26,838 nucleotides of DNA from assembly GCA_038231275.1 (NCBI GenBank), contig JBBRLQ010000058.1, positions 1 to 26,838 of the forward strand, written 5' to 3'. The notes under the pieces were generated by a model. That model saw nothing but the letters and a program-made list of their open reading frames with translations. It was not told where the DNA came from and did no database searches. The stretch's first letter is position 1. Each line of letters begins with the position of its first letter. Made by a program: the position numbers and the translations under genes. Source of the DNA: Polyangiales bacterium. GTDB lineage: Bacteria > Myxococcota_A > Polyangia > Polyangiales > Polyangiaceae. Shown here piece after piece: positions 2,595 through 26,838 of the stretch.

Positions 2595-3599
2595 GTGGAC
2601 GGTCTCAAGGGCACCCTCGATTTCGTCGTGCGCCTCGCCTTCTTCGCGGCGGCGCCGTTCCTGCTCGTCATCGCCGCGCTGCTCTTCCCGGTCACCGGCG
2701 CGCTCGTGCAGATCTCGCTCGCCATGGTGGTGTTCTTCGTCGGCGAGGCCGTGCGCGATCTGGCGACGAAATCACGCATCGCGCGCATTCTGCTGGGTCC
2801 CCAGCTGGCGTTCGAGGAGCACTACCGCGAGCACCCGCCGCGGCCCTTCCTCTACTACGTCTTCTACCCGCTCCTCTTTCCGTACTGGCTCGCGGTGAAG
2901 CCGGCGCGGCGCGAGTTCCTCCTCTACAAGGGCTACACGATCGCGAGCTTCGTCTTCCTCGTGGGGTCGATGGCCTTTGGGTACTACCGGAGCTTTCCCC
3001 CAGAGCTCGGCCTCAAGCAGTTCGCGCCGATCGCGATCGGGACGCTGGTCGCCGAAGCGGTCGTCGTCTTGATGTTCCTCATGCCGATCACGACGACGGT
3101 CGTGCACTTCCACCTCCTTCACGCGCCGCGTCGGCTGGCGGCACTTCTCCTCGTGGGCCTGCTCTCGATGTCCTTCGCCGTCTACCGACTCGAGCGGCGG
3201 CGAGATCCGATCGTCTCGTATGCGACGCGCACGCGCGTGGGACTTCGCACCGTCGCGCGGCCGCACGAGGCAGACAGGGCGCTCACGGCGGCGCTTCGTT
3301 CGGCGTGGGGCGTGCTACCTGCCGCGAAGGGGGACGTGGACAGCGACGGCAAGGTCGAGGGGCGCGTGCTCGATGCCGCGCACGACGGCCTCTCCGGCTT
3401 CTTCCGCCCCGACGAGGCGAACGCGTTCGACCTTTGGTACACGAGGCGCGGAAAGACGGCGATCCTCGTCGTCTACTTCGAGGCGCGACGCGGTCATCGG
3501 CCGATTTGGCTCGCGATGGATCATGCCCACGCGGTCACGCACGACGCGGCCAAGCTCCCGAGGGGCGCGTTCGCGGCGATGGAGAAGGCGACCGAATAG
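2595..3599 (+). CDS. Polytopic membrane protein with a C-terminal soluble domain, unknown function
   Basis: About 6 hydrophobic segments in the first ~200 aa; typical codon bias. Confidence 0.8.
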   Translation: MDGLKGTLDFVVRLAFFAAAPFLLVIAALLFPVTGALVQISLAMVVFFVGEAVRDLATKSRIARILLGPQLAFEEHYREHPPRPFLYYVFYPLLFPYWLAVKPARREFLLYKGYTIASFVFLVGSMAFGYYRSFPPELGLKQFAPIAIGTLVAEAVVVLMFLMPITTTVVHFHLLHAPRRLAALLLVGLLSMSFAVYRLERRRDPIVSYATRTRVGLRTVARPHEADRALTAALRSAWGVLPAAKGDVDSDGKVEGRVLDAAHDGLSGFFRPDEANAFDLWYTRRGKTAILVVYFEARRGHRPIWLAMDHAHAVTHDAAKLPRGAFAAMEKATE

Positions 3600-10177: not shown

Positions 10178-10924
10178 TCAGCGCTTCTTCTTGATGGCTT
10201 TCTTGATGGCCTTCTTGACGGCCTTCTTGATGACCTTCTTCGGCGCCGTCTTCTTCGCGGGCTTGGCGGCCTTCTTCGGGGCGGCCTTGGCGACCTTTGC
10301 CGGCTTCTTGGCCGCCTTTTTGGGCGACGCCTTCGCGACCTTCTTCGCAGGCTTTTTCGCGGCTGTCGCCGTGAGAACGGCAGCCTTGACCGCCTTCGCG
10401 ACCTTGGCGGCGGCCTTCGCGACCTTGGCGACCGCCTTCGCGACCTTCTTGACGCCCTTCGGGCCCTTCGCGGCCTTGGCCGCGCCGCCGACGCCGTTCA
10501 TCACGGGCCGGGAGATCCCCTCGCGCTGCGCCGCGCGTGACTCGAGCGCGGTCTTGACCTTTGCGTCGAGCTCGTCAAATTCGAAGGGCTTGTCGATGTA
10601 CGCGTCCGCGCCGTAGAGCGGGCTCGTCATCATGTTCAGGTTCTCGCCAATGCCCGTGAGCATGACGACGCCGGTGTGGGCGAGCGCCACGTCCTCGCGG
10701 ATCTTGCGGCAGACTTCCCAGCCGCTCATCCCCGGCATCATGACGTCGAGGACGACGAGATCGGGCAGGTGCTCACGCGCGAGCCGCCATGCCGCCTCGC
10801 CGTCCGAGGCCTCGATGACCTCGAGCTTCGGGTCTTCCATCGTCTTGAGGTGGCGCGCCACGAGCTCGAGCATCGAGGGCTCATCGTCGGCGACGAGGAC
10901 GAGAGGCGTTTGGCTGATCGGCAT
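10178..10924 (-). CDS. Response regulator receiver domain fused to a Lys/Ala/Pro-rich histone-H1-like tail
   Basis: ADDE, LDVMMPGMSG (phosphoacceptor Asp), MLT, GADAYIDKPF, then about 100 aa of AKKPAKK-type repeats with no acidic residues. Confidence 0.92.
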   Translation of the reverse strand: MPISQTPLVLVADDEPSMLELVARHLKTMEDPKLEVIEASDGEAAWRLAREHLPDLVVLDVMMPGMSGWEVCRKIREDVALAHTGVVMLTGIGENLNMMTSPLYGADAYIDKPFEFDELDAKVKTALESRAAQREGISRPVMNGVGGAAKAAKGPKGVKKVAKAVAKVAKAAAKVAKAVKAAVLTATAAKKPAKKVAKASPKKAAKKPAKVAKAAPKKAAKPAKKTAPKKVIKKAVKKAIKKAIKKKR

Positions 10925-11068
10925 GGGCGCAATCTTTGAGGAACCCGGCTCCCGGGGTCAAGGACTCAGATTTTCGCGCGGGCGAAATCTGAGCAAAACG
11001 ACCGAGCGGCGTCATTCGTCCTTGAATTTTGTGGGCACCCGCGTCGAAAAAGACGATCACGTCGCCTC

Positions 11069-13837: not shown

Positions 13838-14272
13838 CTACGGCGCCGGTTCGTCCTTGAACTTCGTGGCTACTTGCGACGTCGTCTCGACGAGCGCGCG
13901 CGACGACTGCACGTACTTTACGATCGTGGGCATGTGTCCTTTGGTGAGCTTGAGCTTGCCCTGCATCATGCCCTTGATGGGATCGAGCTCCTTCTTGATG
14001 ACGCTCTTCCAGCGGGCATAGTCGGCGACGATGATGAACGCCGCCTCCTGCGCCTGGGCCGCGGGCATCAAGGTACAGCTGCGGCATTCGCCGGCGTTCA
14101 CGTCGAGCCAGAGGGCCGTGTCCTCGGCGATGCCCAGGGTGGGCTCGGCCTTGACGACCATCGCAACGACGCCGTGCGTCCAGTCTTTTCCAGCCGTCTT
14201 GTAAGCGGGGTTGGCGTTGAGCGCGTCTTTGTACGCGGTGGCCCACTCCGGCGATGGAAAGAGGAACGACAT
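13838..14272 (-). CDS. SCP2 sterol/lipid-binding domain protein
   Basis: FPSPEWA.AY...LNANPAY...GKDW and ADYARWKSVIKKELDPIKGMMQGKLKL (SCP2 signature). AAGGAG SD before ATG 14272. Confidence 0.88.
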   Translation of the reverse strand: MSFLFPSPEWATAYKDALNANPAYKTAGKDWTHGVVAMVVKAEPTLGIAEDTALWLDVNAGECRSCTLMPAAQAQEAAFIIVADYARWKSVIKKELDPIKGMMQGKLKLTKGHMPTIVKYVQSSRALVETTSQVATKFKDEPAP

Positions 14273-14324
14273 CTGGAATTTCTCCTTTGCGCAAAGACCC
14301 ATTAGCACGGAAACTCGAGGAACC

Positions 14325-15656
14325 GTGCCCAAGCCGAGAGTCCATGCCCGTGGGAACAAGCGCCTCGACGGCGTCCTCGACTTCGTGGCGTTCGCGGCCC
14401 GGCCGATGCCGCTGGTCACGTTGCTCGACGAAGCGCCGCGTCGCATCGCGGCGATCTTCGACGCGGACGTGTGCTCGCTCTACCTCCTCGAGGGGGAAGG
14501 GAACGAGCTCGTCATGCGCGGCAACGTCGGCTTCCCGCACAAGGCGATCGGGCAGGTCCGGCTCCAGGTCGGGCACGGCATCACCGGTGAGGCGGTCGAG
14601 TACTTGCGCCCCGTGTCGGTCGATCAAGCGGAGACGCACGAGGCGTACAAGCACTTCGACGGGCTCGGGGAGGAGAAGTACCCAGTCTTCCTCGCGGTGC
14701 CGATCCGCGGGAAATCCGGGCCGCTCGGCGCGCTCGTCATCCAGCGCGCGAAGGATGCGTTCGAGGATCGCGACGTCGAGCTGCTCGCGTCCCTGGGCGC
14801 GCTCATCGCCGCGGGCATTCGTCATGCGGAGCTGATCGACGCAAAACGCGAGCGTGGCGATCAGAGACGCGCCGGCGGGGGAACACGAAAGGTCACGCTG
14901 CCGGGCACCCCGCTCGTCGTGGGCCGTTCGCTCGGCGCGCTCGCGGCGATCCGCAGACCGTCGGCGCGACCGAGCGAGCGCGCGATGGCACCCGGCGGTC
15001 CGACCGAAGGCGAGGCGCGCCTCCTCAAGGGCGCGTTCGACGTCGCGGACAAAGCGATACGCGGCATCGCGGCGCGCGCGCAGAAGCTGGAGCTGGGACG
15101 CGAAGCGGCGTTCTTGTCGACCTACGTGGAGATCCTCGGCGATCAACGCTTCCGAGAGCGCGCGATGGCACTCGTGGGCGAGGGGGGCGGCGTCGCGCAG
15201 GCGCTTGGTCGAGTCGCCCGTGAGGTGACGCGCACCGCCGCGTCGATCACGCGTGACGCGTTCCTCGAAGAGCGCGCGCGCGACGTGGAGGATCTCTGCG
15301 ACGCGCTCACGATGCTCGCCGCCGCCGACAAGCGCGCGGAGCTTCCCCAGAAGGCGATCCTCGTCGGGGACGGCCTCAGCGTCTTCGATCTCCTGATCTC
15401 GGCGCGGGCGCACCCTGTAGGTGTCGCCCTCAGCGATCGCGCGACGGGTCCTCGCACGCGGACGCTCCTGCACCTCCTCGCCGTACCGTCGATCGTCGGC
15501 GTCCAGGGGCTTTTTCGCTGGGCGGCCGACGGAGACATCGCGCTGCTCGACGCCGATCACGGCCTCCTCGTCATCAACCCCACGAAGAGCGAGATCGCGA
15601 GCATGCGCGAATACAAGAAGACGCGCTCCGAGGACTCGCAGGGCGAAGAAGAATGA
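14325..15656 (+). CDS. GAF + PTS enzyme I N-terminal/mobile-domain protein (truncated PtsP-like; no PEP-binding domain)
   Basis: PtsP-type GAF (ADVCSLYL, VRLQVGHGITG, FLAVPI, GALVIQ), EI helical domain (YVEILGD, FLEERARDVEDL) and swivel domain (VPSIVGV...GDIALLDADHGLLVINP), then a stop. GAGGA SD before GTG 14325. Confidence 0.85.
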   Translation: MPKPRVHARGNKRLDGVLDFVAFAARPMPLVTLLDEAPRRIAAIFDADVCSLYLLEGEGNELVMRGNVGFPHKAIGQVRLQVGHGITGEAVEYLRPVSVDQAETHEAYKHFDGLGEEKYPVFLAVPIRGKSGPLGALVIQRAKDAFEDRDVELLASLGALIAAGIRHAELIDAKRERGDQRRAGGGTRKVTLPGTPLVVGRSLGALAAIRRPSARPSERAMAPGGPTEGEARLLKGAFDVADKAIRGIAARAQKLELGREAAFLSTYVEILGDQRFRERAMALVGEGGGVAQALGRVAREVTRTAASITRDAFLEERARDVEDLCDALTMLAAADKRAELPQKAILVGDGLSVFDLLISARAHPVGVALSDRATGPRTRTLLHLLAVPSIVGVQGLFRWAADGDIALLDADHGLLVINPTKSEIASMREYKKTRSEDSQGEEE

Positions 15657-15708
15657 GCCCGTCACCCAAGCTCGTGCATCGCGAGGGTGTCTCCATCGTG
15701 TGCTCCCC

Positions 15709-16332
15709 ATGACCGCCTCGAAGGACCCGGCGCCCGAAGGTCTCCACGATCTCGGCGCGGACGCGGACGGCGACCGGATCTCGATCACCGACGTGAACGG
15801 CACCGTCGCACGCTTCGAGATGGCGTACACGCCGGCGATCGGCGAGCGGATTTTCTTCGGGCCGCCGACGAGCGCCAAGATCCCCGGCTTCGTCTTCCTC
15901 GCGTTCGCGCTGGTGCTGGTGATGCTCGAGGTGCTGGCCTATTCGGGCTCGAGCAACTCGCGCCTCTACGTATGGCTGGTCGAAGGAGATCGCGGCCGCC
16001 CGTTGCCGTCGGTCGTGCTCGCCATCATCGTGCTCGTCAGCGCGCTCGGCACCGTCGTGCGCGCGCACCTTCGCGGCGTCGTCGTGCGCGCGGAGGGGCT
16101 CGAGGCGCGGTACCTCATCGCGCTCGCGTTCCCGCGGATTCGCACGTGGGCGTGGGCGCAAGTGCACCGCGTCATCGTGGACGAGAAGACCGTGATGCTC
16201 GAGCTCTGGGACGGTTCGTACGAGAAGCTCCCGCCGGTCGCCGCGCCGGTCAAGATGCGCGATATGCTGATCGCCGTGTGCGCCGGCCGAAAAATCCCGG
16301 TGACGCAGCTCGGCGCTGTACGCGCTACGTGA
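15709..16332 (+). CDS. Two-TM membrane protein with a C-terminal PH-like domain
   Basis: Two hydrophobic helices, then GVVVRAEGLEAR...RTWAWAQVHRV...LELWDG, typical of bacterial PH-like domains. Confidence 0.7.
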   Translation: MTASKDPAPEGLHDLGADADGDRISITDVNGTVARFEMAYTPAIGERIFFGPPTSAKIPGFVFLAFALVLVMLEVLAYSGSSNSRLYVWLVEGDRGRPLPSVVLAIIVLVSALGTVVRAHLRGVVVRAEGLEARYLIALAFPRIRTWAWAQVHRVIVDEKTVMLELWDGSYEKLPPVAAPVKMRDMLIAVCAGRKIPVTQLGAVRAT

Positions 16333-16351: not shown

Positions 16352-17527
16352 TCAGCGCGCAGCCCACTCCGTGCGCACCGCCTGACGAAGGTCCGGCGAG
16401 CCGAGCAGCTCGATCGCCGTCTTCGCCATCGCCTTCGCGGCGGCGAGCGCGGTGGTCGTGCCCTGATCGCTCCCCGCCGCGGCGGCGAACCGATGCTCGT
16501 GGCAGAGCGCCTCCCCCTCTCCGACGATGGCGAGGTACGGATGAATCGACGGGACGACGTGCGAGACGTCGCCCATGTCGGTGCTTCCAGCGCCCGCGCG
16601 CGCGTCGGTCTCCTTCGCCTGGCGGCCGCCGGCGGCGAGGTGCACGCCGAAGACGCGAGCGAGCGTGAGGTTATTTCGCATGTCCTTGTAGCCCTGGCGT
16701 GCGCTGATCGAGACCTCGACGCCGCTCGCCATCGCGGCCGCGCGACCGCATCGCTCCACGATGGCGCGAACGCGCGCGAGCTCGTCGACGTCGCGCGCGC
16801 GGACGCTGATCTCGCACCCGGCGGACTCGGGGATGATGTTCACCGCTTGTCCGCCGTTGGTGATGAAGCCGTGCACGCGCACGCCGTCCTTGAAGTGGAC
16901 GCGCTGGCCGTCGACGAGGCGGAACGTGTCCATGCACGCCGTGAGCGCGCTCGCGCCGATGTGCGGCGCGGCGGCGGCGTGCGACGGGGTGCCCTTGAAG
17001 TCGAAGAGCAGCCACGTGTTCGCGAGCGCCGGGTGCGCAAGGATGTCGCGATCGAACGGGTGGAACATGATCGCCGCGTCGAGCCCCTCGAACGCGCCGG
17101 CCTCGATCAGCTTGATTTTCCCGCCTCCGCCCTCTTCGGCGGGCGTCCCGAGGAGCACGACCTCTCCACCCGTGCGCTCGGCGACGCGCGCCGCCGCGAG
17201 GAAGGCTCCGACCGCGCCGGTCGCGATCAAATTGTGCCCGCACGCGTGCCCGATCTCCGGGAGCGCGTCGTACTCCGCGAGGATCGCGACGCGCGGACCA
17301 CCTGCCTTGCCGGCGCGCGCGCGAAACGACGTAGGCATCCCGGCGAGCCCCTTCTCGACGGTGATCTTGCGCGACGCGACGAGCTCGCAGATCCACGCGG
17401 CGGCCTTCGTCTCCTCGAAGCGCAGCTCGGGGTTCTGGTGGATGTTCGTGGAGAGGGTGACGAGGTCTTTGGCGTCGGCGACCACGGCCTCGTCGATCGC
17501 CGCGCTGAGCTCTTTCGGGAGGGACAT
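16352..17527 (-). CDS. M20 family amidohydrolase (AbgB/ACY1L2-like)
   Basis: HQNPELRFEE, AEYDALP, GHACGHN, GTPAEEGGGGK, FHP, GSTDMGDVS. GAAGGTGG SD before ATG 17527; the ORF-track extension to 18598 is spurious. Confidence 0.94.
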   Translation of the reverse strand: MSLPKELSAAIDEAVVADAKDLVTLSTNIHQNPELRFEETKAAAWICELVASRKITVEKGLAGMPTSFRARAGKAGGPRVAILAEYDALPEIGHACGHNLIATGAVGAFLAAARVAERTGGEVVLLGTPAEEGGGGKIKLIEAGAFEGLDAAIMFHPFDRDILAHPALANTWLLFDFKGTPSHAAAAPHIGASALTACMDTFRLVDGQRVHFKDGVRVHGFITNGGQAVNIIPESAGCEISVRARDVDELARVRAIVERCGRAAAMASGVEVSISARQGYKDMRNNLTLARVFGVHLAAGGRQAKETDARAGAGSTDMGDVSHVVPSIHPYLAIVGEGEALCHEHRFAAAAGSDQGTTTALAAAKAMAKTAIELLGSPDLRQAVRTEWAAR

Positions 17528-17608
17528 ACGACCACCTTCGACCATGGGCGGCGCCTCGTCAACGCGCGTAAGTCTCGGGCAGCGCCGCCGTGGTAGGCTT
17601 TCGCCGAC

Positions 17609-18772
17609 ATGCTCTCGCGCTCCCGGTGCGCCGCGTTCGCCCTCCTCGCCGTCGGACTCTTCGGCTGCCGCGATCGCATCCCTGGATCCGGCGCGTCGGA
17701 GTCGCCGGGGACCGCGGAGCCTCCGGCAACCTCGGCTCCCCTTCCCGCGACGCCAGTGACCGCTGCGTCGGCGCCCGTTCCGGCATCGGGCGCCCGATTC
17801 GTTCCGGAGCGCGTCGCGCACGAGGGGCAGGCGATGGGCACGCACCTCGCGTTCACAGCGTTCACGACGCCAAACGTCGACGCAGGCAAAGCGAGGAAGC
17901 TCTTCGAGGACGCCGTCGTCGAGATCAAGCGCATCGAAGCGCTGATGACGACGTGGCGCCCCGACAGCGAGGTCTCCGCGATCAACACAGCCGCCGGCAA
18001 GGCGCCCGTCAAGGTCGGCGCCGAGACCTTCGCCGTCATCAAAGAGGCGATCCACACGAGCGAGATCAGCGAGGGCACCTTCGACATCACGTTCGAGGTC
18101 CTGCACGGACTGTGGAAGTTCGACGAGGACCTCGATCCGCACCCGCCCACCGACGCCCAGATCAAATCGAAGCTGGGCCTCCTCGGGTACAAGCACGTCA
18201 AGCTCGACGCCGCCGCGTCGACGGTGTTCTTGGACAAGGAGGGCGTGAAGATCTCGCTCGGCGGAATCGCGAAGGGGTACGCCGTCGATCGCGCGGCGAA
18301 GGTGCTCGAGGCCGGCGGGCTCGACGCCTATTTCGTCCAGGCCGGCGGCGACCTCTACACGCACGGTAAGAAGCCCGACGGCACCGACTGGCAGGCCGGA
18401 ATCCGCGATCCGCGCGGCAAAGACGGCTCGTATTTCGCGATGCTGCCGGTGACCGACCACTCCTTCAGCACGGCCGGCGACTACGAGCGCAGCTACGTGC
18501 TGGACGGCAAGCGCTACCACCACATCATCGATCCTAGGACGGGCAAGCCTGCGACGGCGAGCCGCAGCGTCACCATCTGGGCCCCCACCGCGCTGCAAGC
18601 CGACGCCATCGACGACGCGGTCTTCATCCTCGGCCCCGAGAAGGGACTCAAGCTCGTCGAGTCGATCGACGGCGTCGGCGCGGTGATCGTCGACGCGAAG
18701 AACAACCTCTACGTGAGCCAGCGTCTCTACGGGAAGCTGCGCATCACCGCGGTGCCGACCGACGGACCGTGA
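17609..18772 (+). CDS. apbE: FAD:protein FMN transferase (ApbE), lipoprotein
   Basis: Lipobox LFGC; AMGT, SEVSAIN, FDIT, LGGIAKGYAVD, GGD, GIRDP, STAGDYER, YHHIIDPRTG. Confidence 0.95.
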   Translation: MLSRSRCAAFALLAVGLFGCRDRIPGSGASESPGTAEPPATSAPLPATPVTAASAPVPASGARFVPERVAHEGQAMGTHLAFTAFTTPNVDAGKARKLFEDAVVEIKRIEALMTTWRPDSEVSAINTAAGKAPVKVGAETFAVIKEAIHTSEISEGTFDITFEVLHGLWKFDEDLDPHPPTDAQIKSKLGLLGYKHVKLDAAASTVFLDKEGVKISLGGIAKGYAVDRAAKVLEAGGLDAYFVQAGGDLYTHGKKPDGTDWQAGIRDPRGKDGSYFAMLPVTDHSFSTAGDYERSYVLDGKRYHHIIDPRTGKPATASRSVTIWAPTALQADAIDDAVFILGPEKGLKLVESIDGVGAVIVDAKNNLYVSQRLYGKLRITAVPTDGP

Positions 18773-20221: not shown

Positions 20222-21052
20222 CTACGGCGCCGGCTCGGCGAGGAGCGTCTTCACGAGCTGCTCGACAGCCGCGTCGTGCGAGGGATCGAAGCCGACCGAG
20301 ACGTCGCGCACGACGCCGCGCTTGTCGAGGACGAAGAGCGTCGGCAGATTCGCGATGCCGTACGTGCGCGACGTGTCCCCCTGACCATCGACGACGCTCG
20401 GGTACTTCATGTCGGAGCGCTGCGCGAACGCCGCCGCCACCTCGGCCTCGTCCGTGGTGATGCCGACGACCGTGAGCCCCTGCGCGCCGAAGCGCGCCTG
20501 CATCGCCGACAGCCGCGGCGCGACGAGGCGGCACGGGCCGCACCACGTGGCCCAGAAATCGAGCACGACGACGCGCCCACGAAGCTCCGCGAGCGACTTG
20601 GGAGCAGCGCCGAGCGGCGCGACGTTCTTCCACGCCGGCGCGATGGCCCCGAGGTGATCCATGCGCAGCATCTCGTCGGCGGTCGGGCGCGGCTCGAGCG
20701 TGACAGTGAGCTTCATCTCCTTGTCACCGCGCTGCACGGCCACCGCCACCGTCTCGCCCGCGACGTGCGCGGCGACTGCGCGCGTGACGTCGACGGCGCG
20801 CAGGACGCCGCCGCCGTCAATCTTCACGATCTTGTCCCCCTCCTTCAGCCCTGCCTTCTCCGCAGGCGACGACCGCACGACGTGCCGGACGCCAACGCCC
20901 GCGAGACCGCCAGGGTCCATCGCGACACCGAGCCACCCCGGTGCTGCACCCCCGCCGCCCCGCGCCGTGTCCGCGGCATCGGCCGAGGTCGTCAGGGTCG
21001 CGGCGAGGGCCAGAAGCGCGAGTGCAAGCGTGGGCGCGAGAGCGCGTCTCAT
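20222..21052 (-). CDS. Exported PDZ + TlpA-like thioredoxin protein
   Basis: Signal peptide; PDZ (GWLGV, SPAEKAGLKEGDKIVKIDG); TlpA-like domain (GRVVVLDFWATWCGPC, LPTLFVLDKRG). Start taken at ATG 21052. Confidence 0.92.
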   Translation of the reverse strand: MRRALAPTLALALLALAATLTTSADAADTARGGGGAAPGWLGVAMDPGGLAGVGVRHVVRSSPAEKAGLKEGDKIVKIDGGGVLRAVDVTRAVAAHVAGETVAVAVQRGDKEMKLTVTLEPRPTADEMLRMDHLGAIAPAWKNVAPLGAAPKSLAELRGRVVVLDFWATWCGPCRLVAPRLSAMQARFGAQGLTVVGITTDEAEVAAAFAQRSDMKYPSVVDGQGDTSRTYGIANLPTLFVLDKRGVVRDVSVGFDPSHDAAVEQLVKTLLAEPAP

Positions 21053-21077
21053 CCTCTTCACCGTAGCATCAGACCCA

Positions 21078-21399
21078 CAAAAGCATCGTGGCGCGCTCGC
21101 TCCGCCCCGCGTTCAAGCTGGGGAGGAAGACGATGCGCGCCACGCGAAAGCTCGGAACGATCGGGAAGAGCCGTGAAGCCGAGAAAAGAAGAGAAAGAAG
21201 GCACGCGAAGAACGTGAAGCAGGAACAAGAGCCGGAACAAAGAGAAGAGGTAAGCGGTCGATCGAAGCGAGCAGCGAAGCCAAAAAGTCGAAGCTACTAA
21301 GGATCAAGCAAGGACAAGCGAGTCTGAAAGCGCGTTTCCGATCCCGAAGGGAGGTGGGATCGGGCAAAGGGCCGCAGCCCACAGTCCTCTGCGTCGCTG
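21078..21399 (-). ncRNA. Candidate sigma54-dependent small RNA (~320 nt), U/C-rich with repeated GCUU motifs
   Basis: Lies downstream of a strong sigma54 motif. A-poor body with 10 GCUU, a 5' hairpin (21338-21363) and a long 3' hairpin (21087-21144) followed by UUUU. No credible same-strand ORF. Not a family I recognise. Confidence 0.5.
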
Positions 21400-21409
21400 C
21401 ACTGCCTTG

Positions 21410-21426
21410 AGCACCTCACGTGCCAG
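21410..21426 (-). promoter_or_regulatory. Sigma54 (-24/-12) promoter
   Basis: Minus strand CTGGCACG-TGAG-GTGCT versus consensus TGGCACG-N4-TTGCW, with exact GG-N10-GC. AT-rich tract just upstream (21444-21468). Confidence 0.72.
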
Positions 21427-21632
21427 GCCAAGGAGCACGCGGGAATTCATATATTTTGTCGTTGTTTAGGACAGTTACCACGGTGTGGAAAACCTGCGCG
21501 CGGAGCGAAGGAGCGGACGCGGCGAGGCAGAGGGGTCGCGATCGGCGCGGTGGCCCGCACGTTTTGCGATGTAGGCAAATAGGCGCACCGGCGCGTGATT
21601 TTCACGGAGTCCAAGAGGCGCCGACAAGAGCG

Positions 21633-21660
21633 TTGACCTTATCCATGGCGCGAGTATGGT
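21633..21660 (+). promoter_or_regulatory. Sigma70 promoter for tRNA-Arg/tadA
   Basis: TTGACC-N16-TATGGT followed by a GC-rich discriminator (GCCGCGCG), typical of stable-RNA promoters. Confidence 0.65.
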
Positions 21661-21703
21661 GCCGCGCGCTTCGCCCCTTTTCTTGGGGCGCGCGAGACGT
21701 AAC

Positions 21704-21780
21704 GCGCCCGTAGCTCAGCTGGATAGAGCATTGGTCTACGGAACCAAGGGTCGGAAGTTCGAATCTTCCCGGGCGCGCCA
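21704..21780 (+). tRNA. tRNA-Arg (anticodon ACG)
   Basis: Acceptor stem GCGCCCG/CGGGCGC, D-arm AGCTCAGCTGGATAGAGC, anticodon arm TTGGT-CTACGGA-ACCAA, T-arm GGAAG-TTCGAAT-CTTCC, encoded CCA; 77 nt. Confidence 0.98.
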
Positions 21781-21783
21781 GCG

Positions 21784-22248
21784 ATGACCCACGAGGAGTG
21801 GATGCGCGCGGCGCTCGCGGAGGCCGACGCGGCCGCGGTGATGGGAGAGGTGCCGGTCGGCTGCGTCCTCGTCGGCGCGGACGGGGCGGAGCTCGCGCGC
21901 GGACACAACCTCCGCGAGGCGACGCAAGACCCCACGGCGCACGCCGAGATGATCGCCGTGCGCGCGGCGGCGGCGAAGCTCGGCAGCTTCCGCCTCGAGG
22001 GCGTGACGGCGTACGTGACGCTCGAGCCGTGCCCGATGTGCGCCGGCGCGCTCGTCCACGCGCGGGTCGCCCACCTCGTGTACGGCTGCGACGATCCCAA
22101 AGGCGGCGCCGTGACGAGCCTCTACTCGGTGGGCGTCGACGGAAAGATGAACCACTCCTTCGCGCTCACGCGCGGCGTCTTGGCCGACGAATCGGCGGCG
22201 CGCTTGCGATCGTTCTTCGCGGGGCTGCGGGCACTCGGCAAGAAGTGA
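21784..22248 (+). CDS. tadA: tRNA adenosine(34) deaminase
   Basis: GEVPVG, N.RE...DPTAHAE, YVTLEPCPMCAGA, DPKGGA, NH, LRSFF..LR. Confidence 0.96.
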   Translation: MTHEEWMRAALAEADAAAVMGEVPVGCVLVGADGAELARGHNLREATQDPTAHAEMIAVRAAAAKLGSFRLEGVTAYVTLEPCPMCAGALVHARVAHLVYGCDDPKGGAVTSLYSVGVDGKMNHSFALTRGVLADESAARLRSFFAGLRALGKK

Positions 22249-26160: not shown

Positions 26161-26278
<118 letters not shown>

Positions 26279-26417
26279 ACTGTTGGGTTCCGACGATCTC
26301 TCAGTCTTTTGTGCTGATCGTTTCGTCCTAACTCAGCTCCGACTCATCTGATTGAGTCGAGCGAGGACTTCGCAACCCGAATCCTGGGTGCGAGGTCTCG
26401 ATACTTACCTTAGAGAC

Positions 26418-26838
<421 letters not shown>

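Follow-up and report, generated by a model that had tools for sequence, protein, structure and literature searches.

A candidate sigma-54-type noncoding RNA with a pyrimidine-rich GCUU array at a conserved Polyangiaceae-like locus

What is encoded in the 651 nucleotides (nt) that separate the minus-strand gene of a secreted PDZ and thioredoxin-like protein from the plus-strand tRNA-Arg(ACG) gene in a Polyangiales bacterium? This intergenic region lies in a G+C-rich stretch of 26,838 nt (contig JBBRLQ010000058.1 of assembly GCA_038231275.1; the whole stretch is called the window here). It houses, on the minus strand, an element that a preliminary description, made from the letters of the window, had put forward as a sigma-54-driven, sponge-like small RNA (sRNA) with repeated GCUU motifs. 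We compared the element with two orthologous loci and asked whether it looks like a functional unit, whether it would act on its own or as the leader of the adjoining gene, and what its unusual composition might serve. As far as sequence comparison can tell, the element is best described as an undescribed sigma-54-type noncoding RNA of a Polyangiaceae-like clade, matching no Rfam family.

Conserved blocks of the intergenic element

Orthologous loci were sought by a scan of genome contigs with the PDZ-thioredoxin protein as the query. Among the 80 loci returned, two carried close, near-full-length relatives, L001 (52% identity over residues 3-276) and L002 (56% over residues 40-276). Two loci from Fibrobacter, L003 and L004, aligned over nearly the full length at 32% identity, and the other 76 matched more weakly, mostly through the thioredoxin domain only. 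The closest relatives came from Polyangiaceae and "Deltaproteobacteria" metagenome-assembled genomes, and these two matches make a Polyangiaceae-like member of the Myxococcota the probable source. The comparison of the element rests on three genomes, namely the window, L001 and L002. Word, nhmmer and strand-bias searches covered a wider set of 81 sequences (644,297 bases) that includes L003 and L004. Gene order was kept in all three loci (PBP-type transglycosylase, tadA, tRNA-Arg(ACG), element, PDZ-thioredoxin), the intergenic regions at the orthologous slot measuring 668 nt in L001 and 574 nt in L002.

Four blocks recurred colinearly and in the same orientation in the three intergenic regions: a sigma-54 box, an invariant 12-mer, a C/U-rich body, and a terminal hairpin with its tail. 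They correspond to an RNA with a predicted length of about 325 nt in the window and of about 312 and 260 nt in the two relatives. The 12-mer is the longest word common to the three regions, compared with a mean of 7.5 nt and a maximum of 10 nt in 300 dinucleotide shuffles. Likewise, the regions have 11 8-mers in common, whereas 300 such shuffles gave 0.66 on average and never more than 6. Single-sequence nhmmer comparisons between the orthologous elements gave E-values of 0.35 to 8, confined to the stretch from the promoter to the 12-mer. It is this conservation of blocks within drifted surroundings that provides the main argument for a functional element. Searches of the 81 sequences with an nhmmer profile and with each element singly found no copies beyond the three elements, and word searches of the same set with the 12-mer and the hairpin arms also returned these three only.

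The sigma-54 consensus is TGGCACG-N4-TTGCW, with GG at -24 and GC at -12. On the minus strand of the window, the promoter-like sequence CCTGGCACGTGAGGTGCT (21410..21427) shows the canonical GG-N10-GC spacing. The near-consensus box that had been reported previously, TGGCACGTGAGGTGCT, was indeed present at 21425-21410 with one mismatch, and was the single match of the window to the consensus at ≤ 1 mismatch. In the window alone this match was not significant (0.19 expected by chance; at least one in 19 of 100 shuffles). It becomes significant because it is conserved in L001 (2229-2246) and L002 (3476-3493). All three loci share CCTGGCACGT-N5-TGCT: the -24 and -12 elements do not vary, and each genome has a spacer of its own (TGAGG, TCGTC and TCCGC). 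Invariant -24 and -12 elements with a varying spacer are the pattern expected of a working sigma-54 promoter, and we infer a transcription start near 21400, about 12 nt after the GC. Since a sigma-54 promoter needs an activator of the enhancer-binding protein (EBP) type, such an RNA would be made only on signal. The AT-rich tract upstream of the box, which had been taken for an IHF-type feature, was found in the window alone and was not conserved in L001 or L002.

At a distance of 27-34 nt after the promoter in the three loci stands the invariant 12-mer GTGGGCTGCGGC (21371..21382, minus strand), which occurs three times in the 81-sequence set, once per element. RNAalifold pairs it internally, and it may form a small stem-loop. 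The 12-mer could also act as a base-pairing seed; a search for its complement with up to two mismatches, in the very limited sequence of the window, L001 and L002, yielded only scattered GC-rich matches, none of them at a site common to these loci. The 5' hairpin of the preliminary description was recovered in the minimum free energy fold at 21338..21363 on the minus strand (CCGATCC/GGATCGG, with the loop CACCUCCCUUCG). A hairpin on CGATC/GATCG words is located at the same place in L001 and L002, with pairs that are partly broken there. Clusters of GATC and CGATCG words were seen in the RNA and the upstream region of the window (21145-21365, minus strand) and of L001 (2150-2330), and not in L002.

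The body (21145..21370, minus strand) is a C/U-rich, A-poor tract that holds an array of GCUU, CGCUU and UUCGA words, with ten copies of GCUU. The extreme strand skew noted earlier was confirmed, as the 191-nt core at 21145-21335 consists of T77 C64 G36 A14 on the minus strand. Its purine/pyrimidine strand bias is the strongest in the window (maximum 0.742; 190-nt segments with a bias of at least 0.70 start only at 21090-21195) and also the strongest among the 81 sequences (644 kb). All ten plus-strand AAGC positions that had been listed were found, together with further copies at 21081 and 21115; CTT occurs 22 times in the core, and the seven 5'-most GCUU sites are spaced by 12, 10, 15, 14, 12 and 13 nt, as had been described. 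GCTT is present 10 times in the core against 3.9 expected, a count reached in 2 of 2000 dinucleotide shuffles.

The three bodies range from 176 to 230 nt and are not alignable. Their pyrimidine fractions are 0.73 (window), 0.67 and 0.66, and their C/G ratios 1.84, 1.66 and 1.60, respectively. We scored body k-mers against dinucleotide shuffles, counting words present at least twice per body (at least once for 6-mers). Among 4-mers, GCTT showed the highest joint enrichment, with 10 + 8 + 5 = 23 occurrences against 9.8 expected (z = 5.0; 0 of 1000 shuffles), and other enriched words were CGCTT (14 against 5.0), CGAT (10 against 2.9) and TTCGAT (5 against 0.49). Perfect tandem units are specific to each lineage: GCTTAGCT is repeated three times and CACGATCCG twice in L001, and TTCGATTCCGC twice in L002, the units GCTTAGCT and TTCGATTCCGC carrying the GCUU motif. 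When tandem copies were collapsed, GCTT still occurred 20 times against 8.9 expected and CGCTT 13 times against 4.4 (0 of 2000 shuffles for both). Because the excess is common to the three loci and survives collapsing, and because the tandems are lineage-specific, we regard the motif excess as real and as renewed by local duplication. The spacing of GCUU is irregular, at 8-61 nt. The predicted unpaired fraction of the bodies is 0.54 (window), 0.49 and 0.48, in contrast to 0.18-0.25 for the terminal hairpin.

This terminal hairpin comprises 58 nt (21087..21144, minus strand) and is presumed to be a terminator or a protein-binding 3' structure. As the preliminary description had it, the hairpin is followed by ATGCTTTTGTG (21076..21086, minus strand), a tail presumed to be the 3' end region; its folding energy is -40.4 kcal/mol, with z = -5.9 relative to shuffles. 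The terminal hairpins of L001 and L002 are 34 and 36 nt long, both at -26.5 kcal/mol (z = -6.5 and -5.2). The base of the stem, CGTGGCGCG/CGCGCCACG in the window, is invariant across the three loci as CGTGGCGCG/CGCGCCAC, and the distal parts differ in length and sequence. Across the three hairpins, nine of 15 consensus pairs show no change at all, and eight of these nine make up the stem base. The sequence GC(G)TTT(T)GTG after the hairpin is likewise kept in all three loci.

Neither strand of the element looks coding. The sense open reading frames (ORFs) that start at the 12-mer have 89, 29 and 34 amino acids (aa) in the three loci, with only MGCG in common. On the plus strand, the very basic ORF P0002 spans 21133-21300 (55 aa, preceded by GGAGG-N6 before its ATG), or 70 aa from a GTG at 21088. 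Four neighbouring genes have a G+C content at third codon positions (GC3) of 0.89-0.94; the corresponding values are 0.56 for the 55-aa form of P0002, 0.66 for its 70-aa form and 0.54 for the sense ORF. We rejected a coding reading of either strand on the GC3 of 0.54-0.56 (sense ORF and 55-aa form of P0002) and on the unconserved ORFs.

A search with Rfam 15 at gathering scores over the whole window returned only 23S, 5S and tRNA matches. At E ≤ 10 over 20900-21720, CcsR1 (RF02791) was the only match, scoring 18.1 bits (E = 0.1) where the gathering score is 65.3. At E ≤ 5, none of the seven matches on L001 and L002 lay inside the element. The earlier statement that this RNA belongs to no recognised family thus stands for the elements of the window, L001 and L002. 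A literature search by titles and the beginnings of abstracts found no such RNA described for Sorangium, Polyangiaceae or myxobacteria.

Stand-alone RNA or leader of the PDZ-thioredoxin gene

Transcription of the element into a noncoding RNA, starting from the sigma-54 box, seems to us quite likely. This minus-strand RNA would be read from the sigma-54 promoter and would end at, or just after, the conserved GC-rich hairpin with its short U tail. That it is a stand-alone sRNA rather than a leader of the PDZ-thioredoxin gene is somewhat favoured by the sequence comparison, and the two steps together, amounting to a stand-alone, trans-acting sigma-54 noncoding RNA, have about an even chance of being right.

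The stand-alone reading is preferred because a -10-like element of the downstream gene itself abuts the ATG, and because the distance between hairpin and ATG varies (34, 80 and about 52 nt); the intervening sequence varies too. The preliminary description had credited the PDZ-thioredoxin gene with its own extended -10. We found this sequence, TGCTACGGT, at 21060..21068 on the minus strand, outside the RNA and 7 nt before the ATG at 21052, with TGCTAGAAT in L001 and TGCTAAAAA in L002 as its counterparts (region from -10 to ATG: window 21050-21068, minus strand; L001 2622-2639; L002 3788-3806). In all three loci TGCTA is located 15-16 nt before the ATG, which fits the extended -10 pattern TGnTAnnnT/A with the end of the hexamer 6-7 nt from the ATG. 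Since TGCTA is kept this near the ATG and L001 has no Shine-Dalgarno sequence before it, the comparison suggests that the PDZ-thioredoxin mRNA is leaderless and comes from the gene's own promoter.

Several observations weigh against the element as a stand-alone sigma-54 RNA with a multi-site body. No 7-mer or inverted repeat that could represent an upstream activator site was found at a consistent position across the three loci (the upstream words common to them fall in the tRNA promoter region or are GC-rich), and no sigma-54 activator domain was matched among the 25 window ORFs scanned, although the EBP may be encoded elsewhere. With three genomes, covariation is thin: both partners have changed in 2 of the 15 pairs of the terminal hairpin and, within the 5' domain, in 3 of 16. 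Of the conserved sigma-54 box, GCUU array and covarying hairpins that had been proposed for the region upstream of tRNA-Arg(ACG)-tadA in relatives, the box and the GCUU excess were thus borne out, and the covariation was seen to this small extent. Judged on the window alone, a GCTT count that 2 of 2000 shuffles reached does not convince, GCTT being one of 256 possible 4-mers, and the GCUU sites have a mean predicted probability of only 0.40-0.56 of being unpaired. As would suit a stand-alone sRNA, the element has a sigma-54-type promoter, no conserved ORF, and a conserved hairpin with a U tail, yet a simple terminator scan called this hairpin in none of the three loci; it is missed because 3-5 nt separate the stem from the run of 3-4 U. 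The element is also co-oriented with, and directly upstream of, the PDZ-thioredoxin gene in all three loci, as a leader would be, and the Shine-Dalgarno-like purines that precede the ATG in the window and L002 could be used by a read-through mRNA.

Possible, if doubtful, is a cis-acting role, in which the element would be the sigma-54-driven leader of the PDZ-thioredoxin/VWA_CoxE operon and its hairpin a regulated attenuator. A factor on the C/U-rich tract, either a cold-shock-type RNA melter or a motif-specific protein like TRAP or PyrR, would then pick termination or read-through, and the -10 of the PDZ-thioredoxin gene would give basal, possibly leaderless, expression. The constant position next to the same gene fits such a role, as does a hairpin that ends only 34-80 nt before the ATG; the weak and offset U tail would make read-through likely, and the invariant stem sequence suggests specific recognition over plain termination. 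In contrast, the fixed offset of TGCTA from the ATG and the hairpin-to-ATG spacer, variable in both length and sequence, speak against a leader, and a read-through transcript would be poorly translated in L001, where the Shine-Dalgarno sequence is missing. No alternative antiterminator pairing was found, in the course of an analysis that included no systematic search for one.

Possible roles of the C/U-rich body

If the element is a stand-alone sigma-54 RNA, its action in trans through the long, weakly structured C/U-rich body is a further step that we propose tentatively. Base-pairing sRNAs have a single conserved seed; decoys of the CsrB/Rsm and CrcZ types are characterized by a conserved motif density, an unalignable context and lineage-specific duplications. 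In the present element, motif density is kept, the context is unalignable and the duplications are lineage-specific, which inclines us, again tentatively, towards a multi-site platform for a pyrimidine-preferring factor. The GCUU array is reiterated beyond what composition predicts and is kept while its context drifts. Reiteration of (C)GCUU(C) and UUCGA, renewed by local duplication in this manner, would represent the mode of evolution of a multi-site decoy. The body might bind several copies of a pyrimidine-preferring factor (of the cold-shock-domain, KH, S1 or Rho type) or, alternatively, several purine-rich RNA segments, and the 12-mer and the hairpin base might serve stability, processing or a chaperone. 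By analogy with known decoys, a decoy ("sponge") function of the element is plausible. Its most specific form, an EBP-induced, sigma-54-dependent pyrimidine-rich decoy that would sequester a pyrimidine-binding global factor (cold-shock-domain, KH, Rho) via (C)GCUU(C)/UUCGA, is speculative and, on present evidence, unlikely to be correct in full.

A relation to Rho has little probability. Here the C-rich, G-poor, weakly structured tract would be a rut site that ends the sigma-54 transcript or, if the RNA is abundant, would keep Rho occupied. Rut sites are C-rich, G-poor and unstructured, and the body accordingly offers C/G ratios of 1.6-1.84 and pyrimidine fractions of 0.66-0.73 over 176-230 nt in all three loci, with about half of the tract predicted to be unpaired. 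However, it is directly followed by a strong conserved hairpin and U tail, which a Rho terminator does not need; its enriched words are GCUU, CGCUU and UUCGA rather than plain YC, and the tract is richer in U than in C (T 85 versus C 79 in the window body).

It is very improbable that the region is a non-functional, low-complexity spacer with chance motif matches. A sigma-54 match confined to the window would be expected in 19 of 100 shuffles, and slippage can create short repeats, but four colinear blocks recur in three genomes at 52-56% identity of the flanking protein, the shared-word statistics were reached in 0 of 300 shuffles, and the hairpins have z-values of -5 to -6.5.

Least credible of all is a small, very basic protein from P0002 on the plus strand. 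The ORF and its GGAGG-N6-ATG are present, and antisense ORFs also occur in L001 and L002, but these (69/30 and 100 aa, against 70 aa in the window) differ in length and are not similar to that of the window (E = 0.30; no alignment). The 21133-21300 peptide, which the preliminary description had named as the competing product, has a GC3 of 0.56 against 0.89-0.94; it matched no Pfam family, and a search among proteins of 30-97 aa returned no homologue. The GTG start common to the loci belongs to a palindromic arm of the hairpin, and reading the 3' arm of the upper stem on the opposite strand yields the GGAGG. A promoter scan called no plus-strand promoter.

Neighbouring genes and comparison with known regulatory RNAs

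The gene downstream of the element (20222..21052, minus strand) encodes a secreted PDZ and thioredoxin-like (AhpC-TSA/Redoxin) product, with Pfam matches to AhpC-TSA (1.5e-23) and PDZ_2 (7.9e-14) and an N-terminus that resembles a signal peptide; its GC3 is 0.89. Genes for VWA_CoxE and ApbE come after it in the window and L002; all three loci have an M20 peptidase gene downstream. On the other side, tRNA-Arg(ACG) (21704..21780, plus strand) is divergent from the element, with the promoter TTGACC-16-TATGGT at 21633-21660 (plus strand), and tadA (21784-22248, plus strand) comes directly after it. The 3' end of the tRNA lies 3 nt before the tadA ATG, and the same order with small gaps was seen in L001 and L002 (tRNA-Arg(ACG)-tadA unit: window 21633-22248, plus strand; L001 about 1320-1968 and L002 about 2600-3229, both minus strand). 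TadA deaminase edits A34 of tRNA-Arg(ACG), and the tRNA and its enzyme are probably made from one transcript.

Farther away, a 5S rRNA gene and the 3' end of a 23S gene occupy the edge of the window (26161-26838, minus strand), and L002 opens with a 5S gene (1-90), which places the start of the conserved neighbourhood at the end of an rRNA operon. The ApbE gene (17597-18772, plus strand; E = 6.8e-83) overlaps a 748-codon minus-strand ORF within 16352-18772. Because the M20 peptidase match is limited to the C-terminal half of this ORF, the true M20 start should lie further in; the same overlap of long ORFs at ApbE/M20 occurs in L002. In the region 14205-16332 (plus strand), an ORF with GAF and PEP-utilisers_N domains, similar to PtsP (EI-Ntr), stops after 483 codons. 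The C-terminal domains expected of it were not found in the next plus-strand ORF (15421-16332); a frameshift, a truncation of the gene or an ORF called wrongly may account for this. PtsP is the nitrogen phosphotransferase-system enzyme usually discussed together with rpoN. A 259-aa protein (10178-10957, minus strand) has a response-regulator receiver domain at its N-terminus as the sole recognised domain.

Myxococcota possess very large sigma-54/EBP networks, and Pxr depends on sigma-54; besides Pxr, we know of almost no characterised regulatory RNAs in this phylum. The element offers an entry point, with one promoter, one RNA, a short mutable motif and one neighbouring envelope-redox operon. 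It resembles the sigma-54-dependent sRNAs Qrr (PMC10162802, excerpt) and GlmY (PMC3045617, excerpt), as well as Pxr of Myxococcus, a regulatory sRNA within the Myxococcota (PMC5568312 and PMC11928866, excerpts), in having an sRNA gene under a sigma-54 promoter. In contrast, those RNAs are structured, of roughly 100-180 nt, and have conserved seeds or protein-binding hairpins, whereas the element contains an unalignable C/U-rich body of 176-230 nt.

The stress sRNA CcsR1, known for its CCUCCUCCC motif, is similar in one hairpin with a C/U-rich, anti-Shine-Dalgarno-like loop (window 21363-21338), and the weak Rfam match is due to this 5'-domain hairpin. The element differs in that CCUCC occurs only 1-2 times per RNA. 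Identity with CcsR1 was rejected, as the match falls below threshold (18.1 against 65.3 bits) and was found in the window only, not in L001 or L002.

Protein-controlled attenuator leaders with reiterated motifs are known for TRAP (the trp leader), PyrR and HutP. Like these, the element has reiterated short words right upstream of a terminator-like hairpin before a gene; unlike these, its words are irregularly spaced (8-61 nt) and the downstream gene has its own -10-like element. Should the element nevertheless be a leader, it would represent a new attenuator type before a periplasmic thioredoxin operon.

CsrB and RsmX/Y/Z are decoys of CsrA via GGA motifs, and CrcZ, CrcY and CrcX of the Pseudomonadaceae are sigma-54/CbrB-dependent decoys for Hfq/Crc. 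With the CsrB/Rsm decoys (PMC4894983, excerpt) the element shares the concept of a decoy whose multiple sites arise by local duplication. However, its promoter is of another type, and its three versions contain GGA 4, 3 and 0 times and ANGGA 0, 1 and 0 times; membership was rejected on these too few words and on the lack of an Rfam match. The likeness to the CrcZ-type decoy RNAs (PMC6292655, excerpt) extends to the sigma-54-type promoter, the length of a few hundred nt, the reiterated short single-stranded word and the terminal hairpin, and in both cases motif number and order vary between orthologues. Nevertheless, the CrcZ motif is A-rich, whereas the element is A-poor (32 of 325 nt) and belongs to a different phylum. 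The absence of AAnAAnAA words from all three RNAs and of an Rfam match led us to reject membership here as well, and no (ARN)3 words were found in the RNA. If the pyrimidine decoy were true, it would let a signal sensed by an EBP alter translation or termination across the whole genome, and would represent a new regulatory RNA class in Polyangiaceae-like Myxococcota, with the first pyrimidine-motif decoy and the first such circuit in the phylum. A decoy function would extend, by a new motif and a new partner, the class that GGA (CsrA) and A-rich (Hfq/Crc) RNAs now define.

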